Part shown: positions 11,183 to 61,527 of the stretch, piece after piece
Layout: every line of letters begins with the position of its first letter
Position numbering within the stretch: the stretch's first letter is position 1
Program-made: the position numbers and the translations under genes
Notes under the pieces: generated by a model
The model's database searches: none
What the model was told of the DNA's origin: nothing
Seen by the model: only the letters and a program-made list of their open reading frames with translations
Source: an uncultured Muribaculaceae bacterium
Lineage (GTDB): Bacteria; Pseudomonadota; Alphaproteobacteria; Rs-D84
DNA: 64,000 bases
Assembly (NCBI GenBank): GCA_965231035.1
Contig: OZ246409.1
Location: 508,324-572,323 of the forward strand
Reading direction: 5' to 3'

Positions 11183-13161
11183 TGAAGTTCAGCAAGAAAA
11201 TTTTAGAAACCTTCATTAATCTGCCAAAAGATTGGCGTGAATTGATGGAAGATGTTGGTCTGGAAATAAAATCGGTTGATGGTGATATTTTCAATTTGGA
11301 ATTATTGGCCAACCGCGGTGACCATTATTGCTATTTTGGATTAACAAAAGAAATTTATGGGCGTATCGGTTCAAAAATAAAATATGATATGAATAAAATG
11401 ACCGAAAAACTTTCTGAATCTAAAAAATCAGAAAATTTATTCAAAATTGAAACTGATAAATGCTTGGCTTATTCATTGACACCATATAAATTGGAAAAAC
11501 CTCAAAAAAGCCGGGAAACAAAAGATAATTATATTTTAGAAATATTACCTGCCAGCGGTGTTAATGTTATTTTAGACATTATTGATGTTACAAATGTTGT
11601 TATGCTGGAATATGGTCAACCTGCACACGTTTATGATGCTGACAAAATAAAAGGCAAAATACACATTCGTGATTCAAAACCGGGTGAAAAAGCAACCCTG
11701 CTCTTTCATGATGGTATGACAGAGTTGCCTGTTGGTACTTGCGTAATAGCAGATGATGAAAAAATACTTTGTGTTGCTGGTGTAATTGGTTGTCATGCGG
11801 CCGAAGCTGACGAAAACACAAAAAATATTTTGGTTGAAACAGCGCTTTTTGATCCTGTTGCAATCCGCAAAGCTTCACGCGCAATCGGTCATACATCAAT
11901 TGCTAGTCAGATTTTCGAACGCGGTGGAAATTATCAGGCAATGAAAGAAGGTGCCGCACGCGCAAAGAAATTATACGAACAAATTGGTTGGGTTCAGAAC
12001 GGCGGTTATCAGATTGTTCCAGAAACAATGCCAGTAATGGTAAAAGATATAACTTTACCTGGTGACTTTGTCAGATCTGAACTGGAAATTAATATTTCTG
12101 ACAGTGAAATAACAGAACGTTTGGCCAGATACGGATTTTTGAAATCAAAAACAAAAAATTCGTACTCTGTACCATCATGGCGTGTTTGGGATATCAAAGG
12201 GTTCAAAGCGGATTTAATAGAAGAACTGGCACGTTCAATCGGATATAACAATCTGCCTAATCGATTGCCAATTGCAACAATAGGCAGCCAACCTTCGGCA
12301 TCTGAACTTCGCAAGGCTGAAATAACATCATATCTGGTAAATAATGGATTTTTTGAAGTCTTGGTGGACAATATGTATTCACCTCGTCATGCAAAATTAT
12401 CACCAGTTGCAGAACATATAAGTATTGAAAACAGCGTTGATGGCGGATATGCCTTTATGCGTAATAATGTTATTGTCCAGGCGACAGAATTGGTTTCAAA
12501 AAATCTGCGTGTTAAAAATCGTGAAATTCGTGCATTCGAATGGGGTAAAATATTCAAGAGCGGAAATGAAATAGAAATTCTTTGGGGTGTTATGAATGGT
12601 GAAAAGTTGAATACACTGTTTGCCAAAGGTTTGCTGGAAGGTCTTTTTGCTGATTTATCATTGGATGTTAAAATCGAATACCAAGATTTCGAAGGCAGTA
12701 ACAAAGTTTCTGAATGGTCATTATTGAACCCAAAGCGTCGTGGTCATATAACATGCAATGGTCGAGGAATTTGTGTTTTTGGTGAAATTCATCCAAGTTT
12801 GCTGGCGGAATTTGATATTAAAAATGATGCACCTGTATTTTTCAGCTTTGACACTGCTGGTTTAATGAATGCAGCAAAGAAAAAAATAAAATATGAAAGC
12901 CCAAGTAGCACAATTCCAAGTACCAGGGATGTTTCTGTAACGATTCCTTATGGTGTTGCTGCGGGCAGTGTTTCGAATTTTATCTCTGAAAGGTACAAAT
13001 CAGTTGCAGATATTAAAATTACAGACGTTTTTGAAAAACCAAAAGAAAATGTTCGAAATGTAACATTTGCGCTGGAATTTTCAGGTACAAAAAGTACCGA
13101 AGAATTAAACTCGCTAATTTTGGAAATTATGAATGTGGCAAATGATTTTGCAAAAAAATAA
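11182..13161 (+). CDS. pheT: Phenylalanine--tRNA ligase beta subunit (shortened, 659 aa)
   Basis: B3/4 and B5 regions, C-terminal FDX-ACB-like region. Shorter than the ~800-aa canonical PheT; the N-terminal tRNA-binding domain appears reduced. Confidence 0.88.
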   Translation: MKFSKKILETFINLPKDWRELMEDVGLEIKSVDGDIFNLELLANRGDHYCYFGLTKEIYGRIGSKIKYDMNKMTEKLSESKKSENLFKIETDKCLAYSLTPYKLEKPQKSRETKDNYILEILPASGVNVILDIIDVTNVVMLEYGQPAHVYDADKIKGKIHIRDSKPGEKATLLFHDGMTELPVGTCVIADDEKILCVAGVIGCHAAEADENTKNILVETALFDPVAIRKASRAIGHTSIASQIFERGGNYQAMKEGAARAKKLYEQIGWVQNGGYQIVPETMPVMVKDITLPGDFVRSELEINISDSEITERLARYGFLKSKTKNSYSVPSWRVWDIKGFKADLIEELARSIGYNNLPNRLPIATIGSQPSASELRKAEITSYLVNNGFFEVLVDNMYSPRHAKLSPVAEHISIENSVDGGYAFMRNNVIVQATELVSKNLRVKNREIRAFEWGKIFKSGNEIEILWGVMNGEKLNTLFAKGLLEGLFADLSLDVKIEYQDFEGSNKVSEWSLLNPKRRGHITCNGRGICVFGEIHPSLLAEFDIKNDAPVFFSFDTAGLMNAAKKKIKYESPSSTIPSTRDVSVTIPYGVAAGSVSNFISERYKSVADIKITDVFEKPKENVRNVTFALEFSGTKSTEELNSLILEIMNVANDFAKK

Positions 13162-13187
13162 AAACCCGGTCATTTGACCGGTTTTTA
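13160..13187. terminator. Bidirectional intrinsic terminator between pheT and nth (CCGGUC-AUUU-GACCGG with A-run and U-run on either side)
   Basis: Hairpin flanked by AAAAA and TTTTT. Confidence 0.7.
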
Positions 13188-13862
13188 AATATTCTTATCT
13201 TTGGCGTTGCACCATTTTGAAACTGGGCATTCTGCACATTTTGGTTTTAATGCCCGACAAATATAGCGGCCATGCAGAACCATAACATGATTTGCCATTC
13301 CATGATATTTTTCTGGAATCAATTTCATCAGTTTTGCTTCAACTTTTTCCGGTGTATTGTCAGATTCATCTGCCCAACCATAACGATGCGCATTTCTGAA
13401 CACATGGGTATCCACTCCAATGTGTGGTGCACCCCATAAAACATTCATAATAACGTTTGCTGTTTTTTGACCGATACCAGGTAATTTTACCAATTCGTCA
13501 CGATTGTGAAATTCAATTGGAAATTTCCAATTCTGATCATATTGCTTTGATTCATCAGATAGTTTTTCGGAAAGATTGATAATACTTTTTGCCTTGTTAT
13601 TAAAGAATGAAATAACTTTGATATGTTCTTTTAATCCCTTTTCACCCAGTTCCAGCATTTTTTCTGGAGTATCTGCAATTTCAAAAAGTTTTGGTGTTAC
13701 TTCGTTTACTTTTTTATCAGTTGCTTGTGCGGACAATATTACAGCCACAGCAAAAGTAAATTCATTAACAAAATACAATTCACTGCGGATTGACATATCA
13801 ATCACGCTAGGAACGTTTTGAAAATAAATTTCCGGTGTTAAAGATATTTCTTTTCCTAGCAT
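13185..13862 (-). CDS. nth: Endonuclease III (DNA glycosylase/AP lyase)
   Basis: HhH-GPD (LPGIGQKTANVI...GVDTHVFR) and C-terminal 4Fe-4S cluster loop C-x6-C-x2-C-x5-C (CRALKPKCAECPVSKWC). Confidence 0.88.
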   Translation of the reverse strand: MLGKEISLTPEIYFQNVPSVIDMSIRSELYFVNEFTFAVAVILSAQATDKKVNEVTPKLFEIADTPEKMLELGEKGLKEHIKVISFFNNKAKSIINLSEKLSDESKQYDQNWKFPIEFHNRDELVKLPGIGQKTANVIMNVLWGAPHIGVDTHVFRNAHRYGWADESDNTPEKVEAKLMKLIPEKYHGMANHVMVLHGRYICRALKPKCAECPVSKWCNAKDKNI

Positions 13863-24548: not shown

Positions 24549-24589
24549 AAAGCGCCACAAATTATAACAAACAGAATTTTAATTGCAAA

Positions 24590-24618
24590 TAAAAAACCGG
24601 CAAACACCGGTTTTTTTA
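24590..24618 (-). terminator. Intrinsic terminator after infC (ACCGG-CAAACA-CCGGU flanked by A6 and T7)
   Basis: Hairpin with a U-run on both strands. Confidence 0.65.
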
Positions 24619-30553: not shown

Positions 30554-31429
30554 ATGTCGAAATTTGGATTAGGAAAAGGTTTAGCAGATTTAAAGGCGGA
30601 AATGGGCAATATTCCAGATATTTCTGTTTTAACTGGTGGTGAACGTGTTGCAGTAAGACAGATTCCATTGTCACAGATTGGTGCAAATCCGGACCAGCCT
30701 CGCAAGACTTTTACAGAATCAGAATTGCAAGAATTGGCAACATCAATTCGTGAAAAGGGTGTTTTACAACCAATTTTGCTGCGTGCGGTCAAAGACAAGC
30801 CATACAGCTATGAAATTGTTGCTGGTGAACGCCGTTTTCGTGCAAGTAAAATGGCTGGTTTAGTTGAAATCCCGGCTTTGGTTAAAACCATAACAAATGA
30901 AAATGCTATGGAGATAGCGCTGATTGAAAATGTTCAGCGTGAAAACCTAAACCCAATTGAAGAAGCCAATGCATATAAAAATTTGATGGAAAAATGTAAT
31001 TACGAATTGGATGATGTTTCACGTCTAATTGGTAAATCAGAAAGTTATATCAGAAATATTATGCGTCTGGATAATTTGCCAGAATCTGTTAAAATATTGG
31101 TAGAAAGTGGCGAATTGTCGGCTTCACATGCCCGTACAATTGCAGTTGCAGAAAATCCAGAAGAACTGGCACACGAAATTATTTCCAAGAAATTATCAGT
31201 TGCTGATACAGAAAAAAAAGTAAAAGATTCAATCAGATCATCAAAAAGCAGGGCCCATTCTTCAAATTCTATGGGTGCAGATAATATTAAGGAAATAGAA
31301 ACTAAAATAAAAAAATCCTTGGGGGTAAATGTAAAATTGCGTGAAAAAAAAGGTGGGGCAGGCGAAGTAATACTTTCTTTTGCGAATCGCATTCAAATGC
31401 AAGAATTAATAGAAAGACTTACAAAATAA
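30554..31429 (+). CDS. parB: Chromosome partitioning protein ParB
   Basis: ParB box GERRFRA, HTH region. Start at 30554 with SD AGGAAGAG. Confidence 0.9.
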   Translation: MSKFGLGKGLADLKAEMGNIPDISVLTGGERVAVRQIPLSQIGANPDQPRKTFTESELQELATSIREKGVLQPILLRAVKDKPYSYEIVAGERRFRASKMAGLVEIPALVKTITNENAMEIALIENVQRENLNPIEEANAYKNLMEKCNYELDDVSRLIGKSESYIRNIMRLDNLPESVKILVESGELSASHARTIAVAENPEELAHEIISKKLSVADTEKKVKDSIRSSKSRAHSSNSMGADNIKEIETKIKKSLGVNVKLREKKGGAGEVILSFANRIQMQELIERLTK

Positions 31430-31459
31430 AAAACCGGCAAAAAAGCCGGTTTTTTGTTA
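31430..31459. terminator. Bidirectional intrinsic terminator between parB and the macB-like permease (CCGGC-AAAAAA-GCCGG, A-run and U-run)
   Basis: Hairpin flanked by A6/T6. Confidence 0.75.
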
Positions 31460-31462
31460 TTT

Positions 31463-32680
31463 TTATTCGTATCGCAAGCTGTCAATCGGGTTTAATTTTG
31501 CAGCCTTGATTGCAGGCATAACACCAGATGCCAGTCCTACAATAATTGCCACACTTACAGATAATACAACCGGCCAAGCACTGAAAGGGACTTCATAATG
31601 TAAAATCAGGCGTCCGACACCCTGGGATAATCCAACACCCAAAATTAAGCCGAACATTGATCCAATAAATGAAATCATTATAGATTCTGATAAAAATTGA
31701 ATAATTATATGTTTTTCACGAGCACCAATGGCTTTACGTATGCCGATTTCCCTGGTTCTTTCGGCCACAGATACCAACATCATATTCATAATTCCAATAG
31801 AACCAACCAACAAAGAAACCCCTGCAATGGCTATTAACAGCAATTTCATATATCCAGTTACGGTATTCATAGTGTCCAGCATTTGCTTCATATCCATTAT
31901 TTGAAAATCATCAACATCGTCATCTTTTAATTTATGACGATCGCGAAGCAGGGTGGTTATTTGATCAGATACCAAAACATTATCAGCATCCGCATAAAGT
32001 TTTAATGTTATAAGACTAACAGCATCAGGAAAATGGCTGCCTTGCATACGTTTTTTCATTGTTGTGATTGGAATTATAACCATATCATCCTGACTGCCCA
32101 TTACTGAATCACCACGTTCTTTGGTCATTCCAATAACAACAAAAGGTGTGTTTTGGATACGAATAACTTCGCCCGTTGGATCATCTGGCATATTAAGCTG
32201 TTTTGCCGTTTCTGGACCAATAACAGCGTAAGTAGAGGCATTTCTGACCGCAGAGTCATCAAAAAATACACCCTTGGCAATTTCTAAGTTTTGAACGGTT
32301 GTGTATTCTGGATAAACACCAACCATTGATGAAGACCAATTTTTGTTGCCATAGATAATTTGAGCACCACTATTTTGGACAGGGGTGGCGGCTTCTATAT
32401 ACGGTAATTGTGCGATTGCTTCGGAATCTTGAATGGTCAAAGTTTGTCGATTTCCTGTACGAACACCTGAACTTTGTGCTGCGCCAGCTCTGACCATAAT
32501 TGTATTTGTTCCCAGTGAGGAAAACTGGTCATTAATTCTTTTCTGGACGGTTTCGCCAACTGCAACCATAATAACAACAGCCATAACGCCGATGATAATT
32601 CCCAAAACTGTCAAAAAAGACCGGACTTTATTTCCACTTATGGATAACCAAGATTCTTTTAAAATATCGTTAAATGTCAT
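31463..32680 (-). CDS. ABC transporter permease, MacB/FtsX family
   Basis: N-terminal TM, large periplasmic domain, C-terminal FtsX four-helix bundle. Overlaps the ATPase gene stop. Confidence 0.85.
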   Translation of the reverse strand: MTFNDILKESWLSISGNKVRSFLTVLGIIIGVMAVVIMVAVGETVQKRINDQFSSLGTNTIMVRAGAAQSSGVRTGNRQTLTIQDSEAIAQLPYIEAATPVQNSGAQIIYGNKNWSSSMVGVYPEYTTVQNLEIAKGVFFDDSAVRNASTYAVIGPETAKQLNMPDDPTGEVIRIQNTPFVVIGMTKERGDSVMGSQDDMVIIPITTMKKRMQGSHFPDAVSLITLKLYADADNVLVSDQITTLLRDRHKLKDDDVDDFQIMDMKQMLDTMNTVTGYMKLLLIAIAGVSLLVGSIGIMNMMLVSVAERTREIGIRKAIGAREKHIIIQFLSESIMISFIGSMFGLILGVGLSQGVGRLILHYEVPFSAWPVVLSVSVAIIVGLASGVMPAIKAAKLNPIDSLRYE

Positions 32681-37246: not shown

Positions 37247-37710
37247 AAAAAATAGATTATCAAAAATTATTAGATAACGCTCTGAAATCTGTTGTAAAAG
37301 ATGCGCTGGTTCATGCACAATTTAATGGGTTAGGTGATGGTGCGCACTTTTTTATTACTTTCAAGACACGCGATCCCGGTGTTGTACTGCCAGATTTTCT
37401 GCGTATGAGATACCCAGACATCATGACAATTGTTTTGCAGTATTCTTATAACAATCTGAATGTATCCGAAAAAGAGTTTGGCGTTCAATTGACTTTTGAT
37501 GGTCGTCCGTTCTTTATTCGCGTGCCTTATTCCTCATTGATTGAATTCAAAGACCCCAGCGTGGACTTTATGTTGTCTTTTCATCCAAAAGGTTCACAAT
37601 CTGCGGGAAATGATATGGAATTGCCCTTGGGCGAAGAGAAAGCAAACACAGATGATAAAAGAGTAGTAAGCTTTGATGATTTCAGAAAGAAAAAGACAGA
37701 TAAAAAATAA
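37243..37710 (+). CDS. sspB: ClpXP adaptor SspB (alphaproteobacterial type), probable
   Basis: Resembles SspB-alpha (…HFFITFKTRDPGVVLPDF…YPDIMTIVLQ…), with an acidic/basic disordered tail. Overlaps the recF stop by 4 nt. Confidence 0.55.
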   Translation: MKKIDYQKLLDNALKSVVKDALVHAQFNGLGDGAHFFITFKTRDPGVVLPDFLRMRYPDIMTIVLQYSYNNLNVSEKEFGVQLTFDGRPFFIRVPYSSLIEFKDPSVDFMLSFHPKGSQSAGNDMELPLGEEKANTDDKRVVSFDDFRKKKTDKK

Positions 37711-37735
37711 AAACCGCCGTTTGGCGGTTTTTTAA
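37711..37735. terminator. Bidirectional intrinsic terminator between sspB and accC (CCGCCG-UU-UGGCGG)
   Basis: Hairpin flanked by AAAA/TTTTTT. Confidence 0.8.
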
Positions 37736-39129
37736 TATTCTTCGTTCTTTTCTTTTTCTTCTTGTGCGGCTTCGGCCTGGGCATCTGAATTTTTCAAGAA
37801 AGTTTCCAGCCAATGGTTGTCAAAAGCCAAAGTTTTAACATCTTTATTCTTTAACAATCTTTGTTGCAATGGAATGGTTGTTTTTATACCTTCTATGACA
37901 AATTCTTCCAATGCGCGTTGTGCACGCATAATACATTGAGGACGATTTGGTGCATAAATAATCAATTTTGCAATCATTGAATCATAGGTAGGTGGAATCA
38001 CATAACCAGTATAAACAGCAGAATCAACACGAACACCCAATCCACCAGATGGTGCATAAAGTGTTATTTTTCCAGGATTTGGAATAAATGTTTCTGGGTC
38101 TTCGGCATTAATTCTGAATTCAATTGCATGACCACTGGCGACTATATTAGCCTGGGTATAACCCAATTTTTCACCATCGGCAATACGAATTTGTTCACGA
38201 ACCAAGTCTATTCCATAAACCATTTCGGTTACAGGATGTTCCACTTGTAAACGTGTATTCATTTCCAAGAAATAGAATTTACCGTCCTCGAACATAAATT
38301 CAAACGTTCCCGCGTTGGTATATCCCATCTTTTTTGCTGCGGTTTTACAAACCTCAATCATATCGTCGCGTTGCTTTTGTGTCAGGGCAGCAGCTGGGCA
38401 TTCTTCCATAACTTTTTGATTTTTGCGTTGCAAAGAACAATCGCGTTCACCAAATATTACAACACTGCCATGTTGGTCGCCTAAAACTTGGAATTCAATA
38501 TGACGTGGGTGCAGCAACAATTTTTCCATATACAAAGTATCGTCGCCAAATCCGGCGCGTGCTTCGTTTTTGGTCATCTGAAAAGCTTCTGGCATTTCGG
38601 AAGCATTCATAATTGGACGCATACCTTTGCCACCACCACCTGCAGACGCTTTTAACATGACTGGATAACCAATTTTTTCAGCCCAATGAAGTGCTTCTTC
38701 CAGTGATTCAACAGCACCATCTGATCCTGGCACAACAGGTAAACCGCATTCAATAGCTGTTTTTTTGGCATTAACTTTGTCGCCCATTTTAACAATCATT
38801 TCTGCATTTGGTCCAATCCAAATTAATCCGTGTTGTTCAACTTTTTCAACAAAGCCTGCACGTTCTGATAAAAATCCATATCCAGGGTGAATTGCATCTG
38901 CATTTGTTAATAAAGCAGCAGTTAAAATTGCAGATTCGTTTAAATAAGAATCTTTGGCTGGACCAGGTCCGATACAAACAGCTTCGTCCGCCAAGTGAAC
39001 ATGGGTTGCGTTTTTATCAACAGTTGAATGAACCGCAACAGTTCGTATTCCCATATCACGACAGGCACGTATAACACGCAGAGCAATTTCCCCGCGATTA
39101 GCGATTAGTACTTTTTTGATTTTTTGCAT
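37732..39129 (-). CDS. accC: Acetyl-CoA carboxylase biotin carboxylase subunit
   Basis: ATP-grasp biotin carboxylase: KVLIANRGEIA, GGGGKGMR, EMNTRLQVEHPVTE. Confidence 0.93.
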   Translation of the reverse strand: MQKIKKVLIANRGEIALRVIRACRDMGIRTVAVHSTVDKNATHVHLADEAVCIGPGPAKDSYLNESAILTAALLTNADAIHPGYGFLSERAGFVEKVEQHGLIWIGPNAEMIVKMGDKVNAKKTAIECGLPVVPGSDGAVESLEEALHWAEKIGYPVMLKASAGGGGKGMRPIMNASEMPEAFQMTKNEARAGFGDDTLYMEKLLLHPRHIEFQVLGDQHGSVVIFGERDCSLQRKNQKVMEECPAAALTQKQRDDMIEVCKTAAKKMGYTNAGTFEFMFEDGKFYFLEMNTRLQVEHPVTEMVYGIDLVREQIRIADGEKLGYTQANIVASGHAIEFRINAEDPETFIPNPGKITLYAPSGGLGVRVDSAVYTGYVIPPTYDSMIAKLIIYAPNRPQCIMRAQRALEEFVIEGIKTTIPLQQRLLKNKDVKTLAFDNHWLETFLKNSDAQAEAAQEEKEKNEEY

Positions 39130-40378: not shown

Positions 40379-41440
<1,062 letters not shown>

Positions 41441-41451
41441 TCAATTTCTGT

Positions 41452-41531
41452 GGATGTCTGATTGTATTTGATTTCGGTCATGTAACATTTGTACACTCCC
41501 CTCATCAAATACTGCACATGCATCTCATATA
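41452..41531 (+). repeat. Copy A of an ~75-nt repeated intergenic element (3' of mreB)
   Basis: ~75% identical over ~75 nt to 48886-48962, shared core ...CGGTCATGTA...ACACTCCC...ATCAAA...ACTxCxCAT.... Confidence 0.7.
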
Positions 41532-41542
41532 AATTAATTAAA

Positions 41543-41567
41543 ATTACCGCCGTATGGCGGTTTTTTA
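41543..41567 (+). terminator. Intrinsic terminator after mreB and the repeat (CCGCCG-UA-UGGCGG then U6)
   Basis: Hairpin followed by TTTTTT. Confidence 0.8.
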
Positions 41568-41637
41568 ATTGCATTGCTTGTTGATTTTTAGATTTTAATT
41601 TTGTAACCTTTGGCTTGAAATAATCAAGGATTTTATC

Positions 41638-41862
41638 ATGGAAAAAAACAAGCAAAATATTGAGCAACCAAAAGAACAGCTTTCGTTTGAAGAAGCATAT
41701 AAACAATTAACAGAACTGGTTAAAAAAATGGAATCAGGTGAATTGCCTTTGGCGGATTCTGTTGCAGCTTATGAAAAAGGTATTAAATTAAAGGCTTATT
41801 GTGAACAAGTTTTAAAAGAAGCCGAATTGAAAATATCTACAATTACAAATTTGGATAAATAA
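41638..41862 (+). CDS. xseB: Exodeoxyribonuclease VII small subunit
   Basis: 74-aa helical protein with the XseB signature (LSFEEAYKQLTELVKKMESGELPLADSVAAYEKG). Confidence 0.85.
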   Translation: MEKNKQNIEQPKEQLSFEEAYKQLTELVKKMESGELPLADSVAAYEKGIKLKAYCEQVLKEAELKISTITNLDK

Positions 41863-45932: not shown

Positions 45933-46205
45933 ATGTCCGTTACAAAAACAAAAAAAACAGAACTGATTAAAAAGTTCAAAACATCTGAAAAAGATAATGG
46001 CGGATCTTCTGCATCCCAGGTTGCTGTTTTAACAGAACGCATCAATAACCTGACCGAACACATGAAGGTTAATAAAAAAGACCAACACTCTAAACGTGGT
46101 TTGTTGTTGATGGTTAACCGTCGTAAGAAGTTGCTGGCTTATATTAAAAAGAACAGCGTCGCCGAATACGAAGATTTGATTAAAAAATTAGGTTTGAGAA
46201 AATAA
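45933..46205 (+). CDS. rpsO: 30S ribosomal protein S15
   Basis: S15 signature (…[43 protein letters not shown]…). Confidence 0.93.
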
Positions 46206-46230
46206 AAAAACCCGCAACGGCGGGTTTTTA
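46205..46230 (+). terminator. Intrinsic terminator between rpsO and pnp (CCCGC-AACG-GCGGG then U5)
   Basis: Hairpin followed by TTTTT, as at the classical rpsO-pnp junction. Confidence 0.8.
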
Positions 46231-48567: not shown

Positions 48568-48867
48568 ATGGATATGGGATCATTGATGGAGCAGGCAAAA
48601 CAACTGCAAAGCAAAGTTGCAGCCGCCCAGGATAAATTGGCAAAAACAAGTATCAAGGGTATTGCTGGTAACGGTCAATGCATTGTCGAGATGTCTGGCA
48701 AATATGATCTTTTGAATCTGACCATATCCCCAGAATTATTAAAGAATGATGTTACACACCTAACCCAGGTTATTATGGATGCGTTTGCTGATGCCAAGTC
48801 CAAGGCAGACGCGACCATAGATAAGGTTATGGGTGATGCAACTGCTGGTATGCCACTGCCAGAGTAA
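48568..48867 (+). CDS. ybaB: Nucleoid-associated protein YbaB/EbfC
   Basis: 99-aa protein with the YbaB/EbfC signature (MEQAKQLQ...GNGQCIVEMSGKYDLLNLTISPELL). Confidence 0.85.
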   Translation: MDMGSLMEQAKQLQSKVAAAQDKLAKTSIKGIAGNGQCIVEMSGKYDLLNLTISPELLKNDVTHLTQVIMDAFADAKSKADATIDKVMGDATAGMPLPE

Positions 48868-48885
48868 AATATTAAATATAATAAA

Positions 48886-48962
48886 GCATCTGCTTGTTTT
48901 TGATACCGGTCATGTAGGTTTACTACACTCCCTTTATCAAAAACTACGCATCTACATCATTC
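48886..48962 (+). repeat. Copy B of the ~75-nt repeated intergenic element (3' of ybaB, 5' of tRNA-Val)
   Basis: Collinear with 41452-41531 apart from a few substitutions and 1-2-nt indels. Confidence 0.7.
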
Positions 48963-49034
48963 TATTTAATATTTAAAAAAGTGCAAAAATAACTTGTGTT
49001 TTGGAAAAGCATAGGTTATTATTTCCCAGCAATC

Positions 49035-49110
49035 GGATGTTTAGCTCAGTTGGTAGAGCATCTCGTTTACACCGAGAGGGTCAGGAGTTCGAGTCTCTTA
49101 ACATCCACCA
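49035..49110 (+). tRNA. tRNA-Val (anticodon UAC)
   Basis: GGATGTT/TAGCTCAGTTGGTAGAGC/anticodon loop TTTACAC/GGTTCGAGTCT/AACATCC-A-CCA. Confidence 0.85.
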
Positions 49111-55852: not shown

Positions 55853-56262
55853 AAGTTAGGTTGTGTTGACACTATTTATACACCAACGGCGGCAGGGAAT
55901 TTCAATCAAGAACCAGGATTTTTGCGTAGAATGTATATTATACATCCAAGCAGAAATCCGCAGTTATTGATTCAAATTCACACCGTTTTGTTACTTTGCC
56001 CTGCCTCTGTTATATAAATATATCATCTATTTGCGAAAATCATCTTGCTGTATAACATACAGCCACGCCAGTTTTCACAAATATCTAATATATTTATATA
56101 ACATCGTTGGCGTATAAATAGTGCCAACACAACCTAGTATAAAGCCCAAACACGCCAGCGTCAAGCATCAACCCAGCCATTTTTCAGTAAAAATTATGTT
56201 TTTACTTGCATTTTATCGATTCGGTGTTAATAATTAGCCTGTTCTTAAATAAAAATTTGAGG

Positions 56263-56292
56263 GCGGGGTTGAAGAACCCCGCTCTTTCAATA
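56263..56292 (+). promoter_or_regulatory. GC-rich stem-loop (GGGCGGGGUU-GAAG-AACCCCGCUC) in the nusA leader, directly 5' of the RBS
   Basis: 10-bp stem read directly; followed by CTTTC then AAGGAG-N8-ATG. Confidence 0.5.
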
Positions 56293-56308
56293 AGCAAGGA
56301 GAAGTAAA

Positions 56309-60331: not shown

Positions 60332-60760
60332 ATGTCAGAAGGGTCATATACATCAAATGCGTACAAATCAGTAAATCACAAAGATAAAGATTATACTGTT
60401 GTTTGTGCTAATCATGCGCCAAATATAAATGTAAAAAGTGCCAAGATAATTTTTTGTAAAGAGGGTACAAATATAAAAATAGAAGAAAATTCATCTAAAA
60501 CTAAGATTTTTTATGGTCTTTGGTTTTCTCAAAAGAGTCGTATTTACAACAGGAATTATAAAATTTTTGAATACATTGTACCAAAAGAGGAAAATATCGA
60601 TTGGGATGAACAAATCAAATTAATATCTAAGCAAATATTAAATTGCAAAAAGCCTGAAAAAATAGCAAACGCAAAAGAAAAAATAGATGGAATAAAAAAT
60701 GCATTGGAAATTATCGAAGAAATGAAGGCAAGAAAGAGAGAAAAAGAGTTAAAAAAATAA
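60332..60760 (+). CDS. Hypothetical Lys-rich orphan protein (142 aa)
   Basis: Very A+T-rich ORF with its own terminators on both sides. No family recognised. Sits where rbfA follows infB in the classical operon but has no RbfA similarity. Confidence 0.45.
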   Translation: MSEGSYTSNAYKSVNHKDKDYTVVCANHAPNINVKSAKIIFCKEGTNIKIEENSSKTKIFYGLWFSQKSRIYNRNYKIFEYIVPKEENIDWDEQIKLISKQILNCKKPEKIANAKEKIDGIKNALEIIEEMKARKREKELKK

Positions 60761-60786
60761 AAAACCGCCATTTGGCGGTGGTTTAA
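60761..60786. terminator. Bidirectional intrinsic terminator (CCGCCA-UU-UGGCGG) between the orphan ORF and the bamB-like gene
   Basis: Hairpin flanked by AAAAA/GGTTT. Confidence 0.7.
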
Positions 60787-60792
60787 TTATGT

Positions 60793-61527
60793 TTAATCAA
60801 TCTTTTTTCCAGTTGAAGCGTCAAAGGTTTCATCTTCGACAGTAATTGTTTTGTCTTTATAAACCGGAGCTGCTTGGTCTTGAACCTTTTTACCCCAATA
60901 AATATCACCATTGGATGTATTTATAGCATACAGTTTATTGTTTGTTCCAACAACAAAAGCAAAATTATCAACAATTATAAATGGTTCGGCAACACCCAAA
61001 TTTATACACCATTTTTTATGGCCACCAGTTTTATCCAATTTGCAAAATGCGTCGCCCAGGCCACCAACATAAACCCCAACGCCCTTTACAATAACTGGTG
61101 CAACAATATCTAATACACTGGCACCACCCAACATGTTATTTTCACGATAAACATCCGTGACCCACTCAATATTTCTGGTTTTTGCATTAACCTTGACCAT
61201 TTCGCCTGTTGTTAACCCTGCATAAACAAATTCATCGTCGCATACAGGTTTTTGATCGCTGGTCACAGAATTGCTGGTTGGGAATCCGCTGAATATTTTT
61301 TTATCGCCATTCCAGATAACATTTGAAGAATCTTGGGTATATGGACAATCAATAATCTTGGTTTCTGGCAGGTTCATTGGTAAGTTTTGAACTTCTTTAT
61401 TCAAAATAACCAGTGCAGCCCCAGGAAATATGGATTCGCGCTGTCCAGGTAATATAGGATCGTGTTTTGAGCAAGCGGACAATGAAACTGGGATTAAAAA
61501 TAAGGTTAATATTTTTAATTTGTTCAT
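60793..61527 (-). CDS. PQQ-like beta-propeller lipoprotein (BamB-like, short)
   Basis: Lipobox VSLSAC, PQQ/WD-like repeats (…KLYAINTSNGDIYWGK…). At 244 aa it is shorter than canonical BamB. Paired with a yfgM-like gene upstream, as in yfgM-bamB. Confidence 0.55.
   Translation of the reverse strand: MNKLKILTLFLIPVSLSACSKHDPILPGQRESIFPGAALVILNKEVQNLPMNLPETKIIDCPYTQDSSNVIWNGDKKIFSGFPTSNSVTSDQKPVCDDEFVYAGLTTGEMVKVNAKTRNIEWVTDVYRENNMLGGASVLDIVAPVIVKGVGVYVGGLGDAFCKLDKTGGHKKWCINLGVAEPFIIVDNFAFVVGTNNKLYAINTSNGDIYWGKKVQDQAAPVYKDKTITVEDETFDASTGKKID

Follow-up and report, generated by a model that had tools for sequence, protein, structure and literature searches.

ERIC (enterobacterial repetitive intergenic consensus), also called IRU, has provided typing markers for more than 30 years; to our knowledge its origin, its function and the enzyme that mobilises it are unknown. 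In 2005, De Gregorio reportedly described a TA duplication at ERIC. MITEs normally conserve their ends, and elements of the IS200/IS605 type have neither terminal inverted repeats nor a target duplication. According to two reviews (PMC10969869, PMC3184786), ERIC is itself a MITE with terminal inverted repeats and TA flanks, and the ERICs of Yersinia have an RNase E-linked effect on mRNA; the host range is given as Enterobacteriaceae and Vibrionaceae only (PMC10969869).

Several other families of small repeats have been described. The Correia/NEMIS elements of Neisseria and the RUP elements of Streptococcus pneumoniae are co-transcribed with neighbour genes and processed by RNase (PMC10969869, PMC3184786). 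REP superfamilies span phyla (PMC3733652), and Rickettsia palindromic elements (RPE) often insert in frame within genes (review PMC10969869). In a census of 183,232 genomes, 97.4% of MITEs (cMITEs) were specific within genus boundaries; the core sequence described below is not mentioned there.

The source of the 64-kb stretch of DNA analysed here (hereafter the window) is an uncultured bacterium with AT-rich DNA, most closely related to MAGs that carry the label Alphaproteobacteria. The window contains two related sequences, copy A after mreB and copy B after ybaB (Table 1). We propose, with a probability of about 0.8, that both are non-autonomous hairpin repeats of the MITE type, which belong to an ERIC-like superfamily and are co-transcribed in the 3' UTRs of the genes that precede them.

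Table 1. Positions of the two elements, their parts and the adjoining features in the window.
Feature	Positions	Strand	Sequence, pairing or basis
Copy A, whole element	41441-41541	- (purine-rich GGGAG strand)	101 nt; filled/empty-site alignment
Copy A, conserved core	41475-41500	-	GGGAGUGUAC-AAAUGU-UACAUGACCG; pattern match and covariance-model matches
Copy A, inner stem	41464-41512	.	GTATTTGAT (41464-41472) pairs with ATCAAATAC (41504-41512), core enclosed
Copy B, whole element	~48868-48973	- (purine-rich GGGAG strand)	fold and inverted repeat I19
Copy B, conserved core	48907-48932	-	GGGAGUGUAG-UAAAC-CUACAUGACCG; pattern match and covariance-model matches
Copy B, inner stem	48896-48944	.	GTTTTTGAT (48896-48904) pairs with ATCAAAAAC (48936-48944); fold
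mreB	40391-41440	+	ORF list; Pfam MreB_Mbl on identical protein
Intrinsic terminator of mreB	41546-41561	+	terminator scan and alignment; 3' of copy A
ybaB	48568-48867	+	ORF list; Pfam YbaB_DNA_bd
tRNA-Val(TAC)	49035-49110	+	ARAGORN, Rfam tRNA; 3' of copy B

An earlier note on this DNA had reported two collinear, ~75%-identical intergenic sequences in the same orientation, one of them before a terminator and the other before a tRNA gene. This description holds, including the context: the mean column identity of the aligned copies is 76%, and an ungapped comparison over 82 nt (41457-41538 vs 48889-48970) gives 73%. The blocks shared by the copies, CGGTCATGTA-N7-TACACTCCC, have exactly two matches in the window, when 0.01 are expected from shuffles. 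Two covariance models, R1 and R2, run on the whole window with filters off, find A and B as the sole sites. R1 gives 52.5 bits for copy B (48893-48946, minus strand) and 44 bits for copy A (41461-41514, minus strand), R2 gives 53.6 and 38.9 bits, respectively, and the next-best match in the window scores at most 11 bits with either model. The size and the boundaries had to be corrected, since each element is ~100 nt long and not ~75 nt (judging from the fold and, for A, from the 101-nt difference between filled and empty sites), and begins at the stop codon and not 12-20 nt after it. The mreB TAA (41438-41440) is the insertion point of copy A, and copy B starts immediately 3' of the ybaB TAA (48865-48867). 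The interval given for copy A counts in one copy of the candidate target-site duplication (TA, TAA, TTAA or ATTAA).

Folding predicts each copy to be a single long imperfect hairpin which starts at the stop codon. Copy A and its terminator together fold with -36.9 kcal/mol (z -5.1); in the fold of copy B (48868-49010), positions 48868-48878 pair with 48963-48973. The terminal inverted repeats are ATCAATTTCTGTGGATG, which pairs with CATCTCATATAAATTAAT, in copy A, and AATATTAAATATAAT, which pairs with ATTCTATTTAATATT, in copy B, whose ends read AATATTAAATA.. and ..TATTTAATATT. The stems proposed earlier (CATGT/ACATG in A, ATGTAG/CTACAT in B) had partners at non-equivalent positions, and structural conservation was accordingly called unproven. 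The conserved pairing is a different one: the 9-bp inner stem listed in Table 1 and the hairpin at the centre, formed by TGTA/TACA in A and by TGTAG/CTACA in B, occupy equivalent positions in the two copies, and this structure is conserved and covaries. In the inner stem, a compensatory change from A/T to T/A between the copies can be read from the sequence directly. The outer arms are inverted repeats within each copy and are dissimilar between A and B, which is why only the inner 75 nt had been noticed. The minus strand has the lower predicted energy in both cases (-23.1 vs -17.7 kcal/mol for the plus strand in copy A, -29.5 vs -19.6 kcal/mol in copy B).

The evidence for mobility comes from copy A. 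Six public contigs (L001-L006) encode an MreB that is 100% identical to that of the window. The element is present in the window and in L002, L004 and L006, and exactly 101 nt are absent from L001, L003 and L005; the intergenic length is 197 nt in the filled form and 96 nt in the empty one, and the flanks are otherwise nearly identical. In the empty site, the terminator lies 5 nt 3' of the mreB stop codon (TATGTATTAA|AATTACCGCC). ATTAA is found at both junctions of the filled site, so that a duplication of TA, TAA, TTAA or ATTAA (2-5 nt) fits equally in this single filled/empty pair; with a TA duplication, the ends of copy A are symmetric (ATCAATTT / AAATTAAT). The insertion regenerates the mreB stop codon. 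Copy A, with exactly 101 nt present or absent and with junctions that fit a target duplication, thus has the behaviour of a mobile insertion. All strains compared have copy B. Several features of a MITE are found here: a length of ~100 nt (MITEs being shorter than ~500 bp), the lack of a gene inside the element, inverted repeats at its ends, and a filled and an empty site.

L001, a strain without copy A, carries in the rpsO-pnp gap (L001:15737-16582, minus strand, at about window position 46230) an extra segment of ~0.9 kb, whose 281-aa ORF matches nothing in Pfam; this segment is absent from the window and from L002. In the window, an 89-aa ORF (41437-41706, minus strand) runs antisense over copy A and the terminator, as does a called gene of 72 aa in L002 (11047-11265); the element has most likely misled the gene calling here.

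The earlier note had asked for further copies. There are two in the window, and a scan for the two core blocks, with one genome per species and with hosts assigned by record title, found the core at no less than 120 loci elsewhere. Among these loci, the 26-base centre, which reads GGGAGUGUAC-loop-GUACAUGACCG on the minus strand, is unchanged in bacteria of about ten phyla. In the matches listed, the hosts are Pseudomonadota (Alpha-, Beta- and Gammaproteobacteria), Bacillota (Clostridia), Bacteroidota, Thermodesulfobacteriota, Lentisphaerota, Verrucomicrobiota (Opitutales), Spirochaetota, Deferribacterota, Bdellovibrionota and Myxococcota. The cultured carriers include Paramuribaculum intestinale DSM 100749, Dokdonella soli JCM 15421, Pseudomonas tumuqii, Citrobacter youngae CCUG 30791 and Anaerocaecibacter muris. 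In every locus listed, the core is the tip of a long hairpin with mutually complementary arms, and the arm sequences are wholly different between lineages and alike within one genome. About 30 of the listed matches lie within 300 nt of a contig end, according to our own reading of the contig ranges, and some loci have tandem or multiple copies (several per 8-kb locus in related genomes), as expected of repeats. A metagenome scan for more copies from the source organism returned eight loci, the JGI contig of the window not being one of them, and is uninformative on copy number. An all-vs-all BLAST of the ORFs within 2.5 kb of the elements found no neighbour gene or transposase that recurs across most loci; the largest cluster of neighbour ORFs spans six loci, and these clusters, small and unannotated, are taken to be host genes nearby.

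The subfamily closest to the window copies is found in MAGs labelled Alphaproteobacteria or Rickettsiales (L008, L027, L033, L039, L051, L060, L089). Relatives of copy B occur at other loci, in L027 and, between two tRNA genes, in L132. The latter (L132:6209-6262), a B-type copy with the inner stem TTTTTGAT/ATCAAAAA as in B, sits between tRNA-Gly and tRNA-Tyr on a contig of similar GC content (36%), from the JGI metagenome Ga0116157 (L002 is from Ga0116171), and perhaps represents a third locus of the source organism or of a close relative. One of the relatives among these MAGs, whose YbaB and PNPase are 70% and 71% identical to those of the window, also has an element at the spot of copy B, after the ybaB stop codon (L128:7762-7803). 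Its arms are completely different from those of copy B and resemble those of the other copies of the same genome (L129, L131), so that the site is either an insertion hot spot or the place of an old copy that has been homogenised.

Two groups of loci may be mentioned in passing. The exact core is present in seven stretches from IMG/VR (L136-L142), on six viral or proviral contigs. In gammaproteobacterial loci (L034:1887-2388, L025, L046, L054, L057), elements lie beside tRNA-Ile/tRNA-Ala of the kind found in rRNA operon spacers; L034 has three full-length copies and one partial match around these tRNA genes.

Read along the GGGAG strand, the core has the form NN-GA-GG-GA-G-[5-bp stem, 4-8 nt loop]-U-GA-CC-GA-NN; written for the minus strand, the module is also GA/AA-GG-GA-G-[5-bp stem-loop]-U-GA-CC-GA/GR. 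It consists of two tandem G.A/A.G blocks which flank two G-C pairs, followed by a G.U pair. Its variation was read from copies without the exact core, found by the covariance models, which is a less biased sample. In these, the 5-bp stem UGUAC/GUACA is replaced by the compensatory variants CGUAC/GUACG, CAUAC/GUAUG, UUUAC/GUAAA and UGUGC/GCACA, and the closing G-C pair becomes A-U in variant cores, and the G.A/A.G positions are mostly constant. Covariation, which the earlier note wanted analysed, is strong in both helices. On the alignment fitted by the model, the core helix shows 98.7% pairing, and 6 of its 8 pairs have changes on both sides; in the inner stem, such double-sided variation extends to all 10 pairs. 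The observed score is not attained in any of 500 shuffles, and slid controls pair at 30-46% vs 78%; the result is similar with a gapless alignment. As inverted-repeat arms would also covary for reasons at the level of DNA, this covariation is no proof of an RNA function. Rfam has no match at the element, either in the window (at the gathering threshold and in a permissive search with E up to 10) or in 18 diverse loci (gathering threshold). Mimicry of rRNA was considered and rejected, the best score of R2 on an E. coli rrn operon being 9.5 bits (E 0.28).

How close are these elements to ERIC? An E. coli ERIC element was retrieved with the joined sequences of the ERIC1R and ERIC2 primers. Its centre, the conserved inverted repeat at which the ERIC primers are aimed, reads ...GCAGGAAGGCGACAAGTGAGTGAATCCCC-AGGAGCTTAC-ATAA-GTAAGTGACTG-GGGTGAGCGAACGCAAACGCAGC..., its ends TATAC...GTATA, and it abuts the ybhI stop codon in the orientation of the window copies. 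R1, built from exact-core copies only, missed it. Since R1 was over-fitted, a set of 41 sequences, with variant cores among them but nothing enterobacterial, was used to build R2; R2 matches the ERIC centre with 23.7 bits (E 2.2e-5 in a search of 64.8 kb), a modest match with a roughly calibrated E-value. The ERIC centre AGGAG-CUUAC-AUAA-GUAAG-UGACU corresponds base for base to GGGAG-UGUAC-loop-GUACA-UGACC of the window family; the differences, at six paired positions, are all compensatory, and the G.A/A.G and G.U pairs are kept. The general architecture is also similar: ERIC (~127 bp) and the window elements are imperfect palindromes, 100-130 bp in length, bounded by terminal inverted repeats and, where copy A is read with a TA duplication, by TA; they are intergenic, devoid of genes, often adjacent to a stop codon in one preferred orientation, and have similar purine-rich internal-loop motifs. 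However, the two have no sequence in common in their arms or ends, and their hosts differ. As the core occurs in about ten phyla and the nearest relatives are in alphaproteobacterial MAGs, the window elements are not ERIC in the strict sense. The R2 match and the architecture, as judged by eye, support membership of one ERIC-like superfamily and not identity.

The other known families are more distant. Like the window elements, Correia/NEMIS and RUP are small non-autonomous hairpins with terminal inverted repeats and a TA duplication, but they have no sequence similarity to the window family, are conserved at their ends (with an IHF site in Correia) and lack a central hairpin common to several phyla. 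REP, BIME and REPIN are dispersed extragenic palindromes too, often in 3' UTRs; however, REPs are 20-40 bp long, are tagged by GTAG or CGTC and go together with RAYT genes, whereas the window element has ~100 nt, terminal inverted repeats, a direct repeat at the filled site and another core, and no recurrent gene was found among the ORFs within 2.5 kb of family members. QMITE2 of Coxiella, which also favours 3' UTRs, was considered and set aside as another family, being of the GTAG-REP type with direct repeats of 7-11 nt. The RPEs are alphaproteobacterial hairpin repeats of similar size, but no sequence relation was seen, and we separate them from the window element by their description. Elements derived from IS200/IS605 have subterminal hairpins and TnpA/TnpB nearby, unlike the window elements with their terminal inverted repeats and direct repeat; nor do such genes recur within 2.5 kb of family members. 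The REP- or RPE-like dispersed small repeat that the earlier note had listed among its candidates is therefore right as regards a dispersed repeat, here of the MITE type (insertion polymorphism, terminal inverted repeats, relatives at unrelated loci), and wrong as regards the family, the sequence being unlike REP and apparently unlike RPE, and ERIC being the closest known relative. Literature searches with the core as text returned chance primer matches only, and searches for ERIC-like elements outside enterics or for cross-phylum MITEs returned nothing relevant.

The orientation relative to neighbouring genes, another point that the earlier note wanted checked, follows a rule. Using simple ORF calling (ORFs of at least 150 aa) on 127 instances, we find the stop codon of a convergent gene 3-69 nt (mostly 34-59 nt) from the core in 43 and the mirror arrangement in 5 (p 1.4e-8); this split includes orthologous sites, hence fewer independent cases. 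Of the 48 members next to a stop codon, 43 thus place the CGGUCAUGUAC..GUACACUCCC strand in the mRNA, and both window copies follow this rule. In the copies of tRNA and rRNA operons, the transcribed strand is mostly GGGAG. It may be that Shine-Dalgarno-like purine runs are counter-selected just behind the terminating ribosome; it is also possible that insertion is strand-specific, or that the RNA with the pyrimidine loop is the functional form.

The two strands also differ in their folding, and here lies a paradox: mRNAs usually carry the other strand, yet the better fold is that of the GGGAG strand, in 104 of 108 instances and by 12.7 kcal/mol on average (-60.1 vs -47.4 kcal/mol), because its internal loops are purine-purine (GA/GA 78, G/A 49, A/G 40); 76% of its unpaired arm bases are purines. 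An asymmetry of G.U pairs, which would have been a sign of selection on RNA, was discarded, the counts being about equal (292 vs 260); the asymmetry is in the purine-purine mismatches instead. Purine-purine loops on one strand only, the better folding of that strand and the conservation of the centre and not of the ends would all fit a hairpin or cruciform site that acts at the DNA level, the single-stranded GGGAG strand being the substrate of a HUH-type nuclease, a recombinase or a repair protein, and the elements spreading otherwise than by classic DDE cut-and-paste. We consider this unlikely, since the neighbour ORFs show no association with a gene for HUH or any other enzyme and since the filled site has a direct repeat and terminal inverted repeats, unlike that of an IS200/IS605-type element; besides, if the bias follows the co-orientation of genes and replication, GGGAG would not be on the lagging-strand template.

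The orientation rule can also be read as a sign of function in the host: the plus-strand CGGUCAUGUAC..GUACACUCCC form would be selected as a cis-regulatory element, or as the source of a 3'UTR-derived sRNA, and would control mRNA decay or translation, maybe as an exapted mobile element. The internal loops of the plus-strand transcript are pyrimidine-rich and anti-Shine-Dalgarno-like. The placement of both copies in 3' UTRs, with the same strand in the mRNA as in most stop-abutting members, agrees with this reading, as does the intact core of A and B, whose arms differ by ~25%. The position of copy B after ybaB, common to a relative at ~70% protein identity, could even be held against a MITE, as it could indicate long retention and a role in the host. 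However, the copy of that relative resembles those of its own genome, which suggests re-insertion or homogenisation and not retention. Copy A is absent in strains with an identical MreB, in 104 of 108 instances the plus-type strand has a poorer fold than its complement, flanking genes are unrelated across loci, and Rfam has no match in the window or in the 18 loci searched. All this makes a regulatory RNA of the host quite unlikely, and the 3'UTR-derived sRNA that the earlier note had envisaged loses its ground with the dispensability of copy A and the lack of an Rfam match. The last of its candidates fares better: the invariant core is possibly a recognition site for a protein or an RNase.

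A small peptide or an antisense sRNA encoded on the minus strand is very improbable. GGGAG looks like a Shine-Dalgarno sequence, and neither it nor the AUG of the core from which translation would start (giving MTGIKNKQMLYYI in copy B) varies in the sampled family; the better fold is that of the minus strand, and a weak promoter-like site faces copy B on that strand. But the predicted peptides, of 3-100 aa (median 16.5 aa), fall into 106 distinct sequences that have only the core-encoded MT[E/D/G] in common, and the small ORF was rejected for want of a conserved peptide beyond these residues. GGGAG and AUG are 13-17 nt apart, and promoter-like sites near the copies occur at chance number. Moreover, the base before UG covaries with its partner (A becomes G in ERIC and in variant copies), and so behaves as a paired base and not as a conserved start-codon position.

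Finally, although the region is AT-rich and holds two copies only, a chance similarity or the remnant of a longer duplicated gene 3' end, which the earlier note had named as the finding that would undo its proposal, is almost certainly not the explanation, given the 0.01 expected matches, the unrelated upstream genes, the exact empty site at mreB and the presence of the core at ≥120 loci.

MITE-type repeats of an ERIC-like superfamily therefore remain our preferred reading, and they explain this odd pair of conserved 3' intergenic sequences. Copy A results from the insertion, or its absence from the precise loss, of exactly 101 nt at the mreB TAA. By analogy with ERIC, Correia and RUP, with their TA duplications, a transposase supplied in trans would have inserted the element. 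The copies lie between a stop codon and a terminator (A) or a tRNA (B), which predicts their co-transcription in the form of 3'-UTR hairpins, the mRNA carrying the strand with the pyrimidine loops, and they might affect the expression of mreB and ybaB, as an exonuclease barrier or as an RNase target, in the manner of the Yersinia ERICs. The mreB 3' UTR, in which a 101-nt hairpin differs among near-identical strains, offers a natural experiment on mRNA stability.

This local role is ordinary; the unexpected part is the deep and wide conservation of the central module, together with the strand asymmetry. Ordinary MITEs conserve their ends; in this family it is the centre that is kept and the ends that vary, a pattern for which ordinary cut-and-paste offers no explanation. 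We suggest, very tentatively and as a doubtful extension of the above, that ERIC could be just the enterobacterial branch of a superfamily of hairpin MITEs that spans the bacteria and is defined not by its ends but by its central module (the tandem G.A/A.G blocks, two G-C pairs and the 5-bp stem-loop). The arms would be replaced completely from one lineage to the next. The constant centre and the purine loops confined to one strand would then point to a universally available factor that reads the GGGAG hairpin in single-stranded form (RNA or ssDNA) and thereby mobilises or maintains the elements. An ERIC-type core that is identical across isolates and MAGs of many phyla gives a comparative handle on the role of this core, and P. 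intestinale DSM 100749, D. soli JCM 15421 and A. muris are culturable carriers in which it can be tested.

The window contains other repeats. A gap of 456 nt between divergent genes (55853-56308) has nested inverted repeats, in which 55857-55888 is 94% complementary to 56105-56136 and 56008-56039 is 88% complementary to 56072-56103. Very similar hairpins that resemble intrinsic terminators (AAAAAACCGCC..GGCGGTTTTTT) are found at 13155-13198, 24587-24616, 31423-31466, 37700-37736, 41533-41569, 46200-46229 and 60751-60796; many of them are flanked by both A-runs and T-runs and are thus apparently bidirectional.
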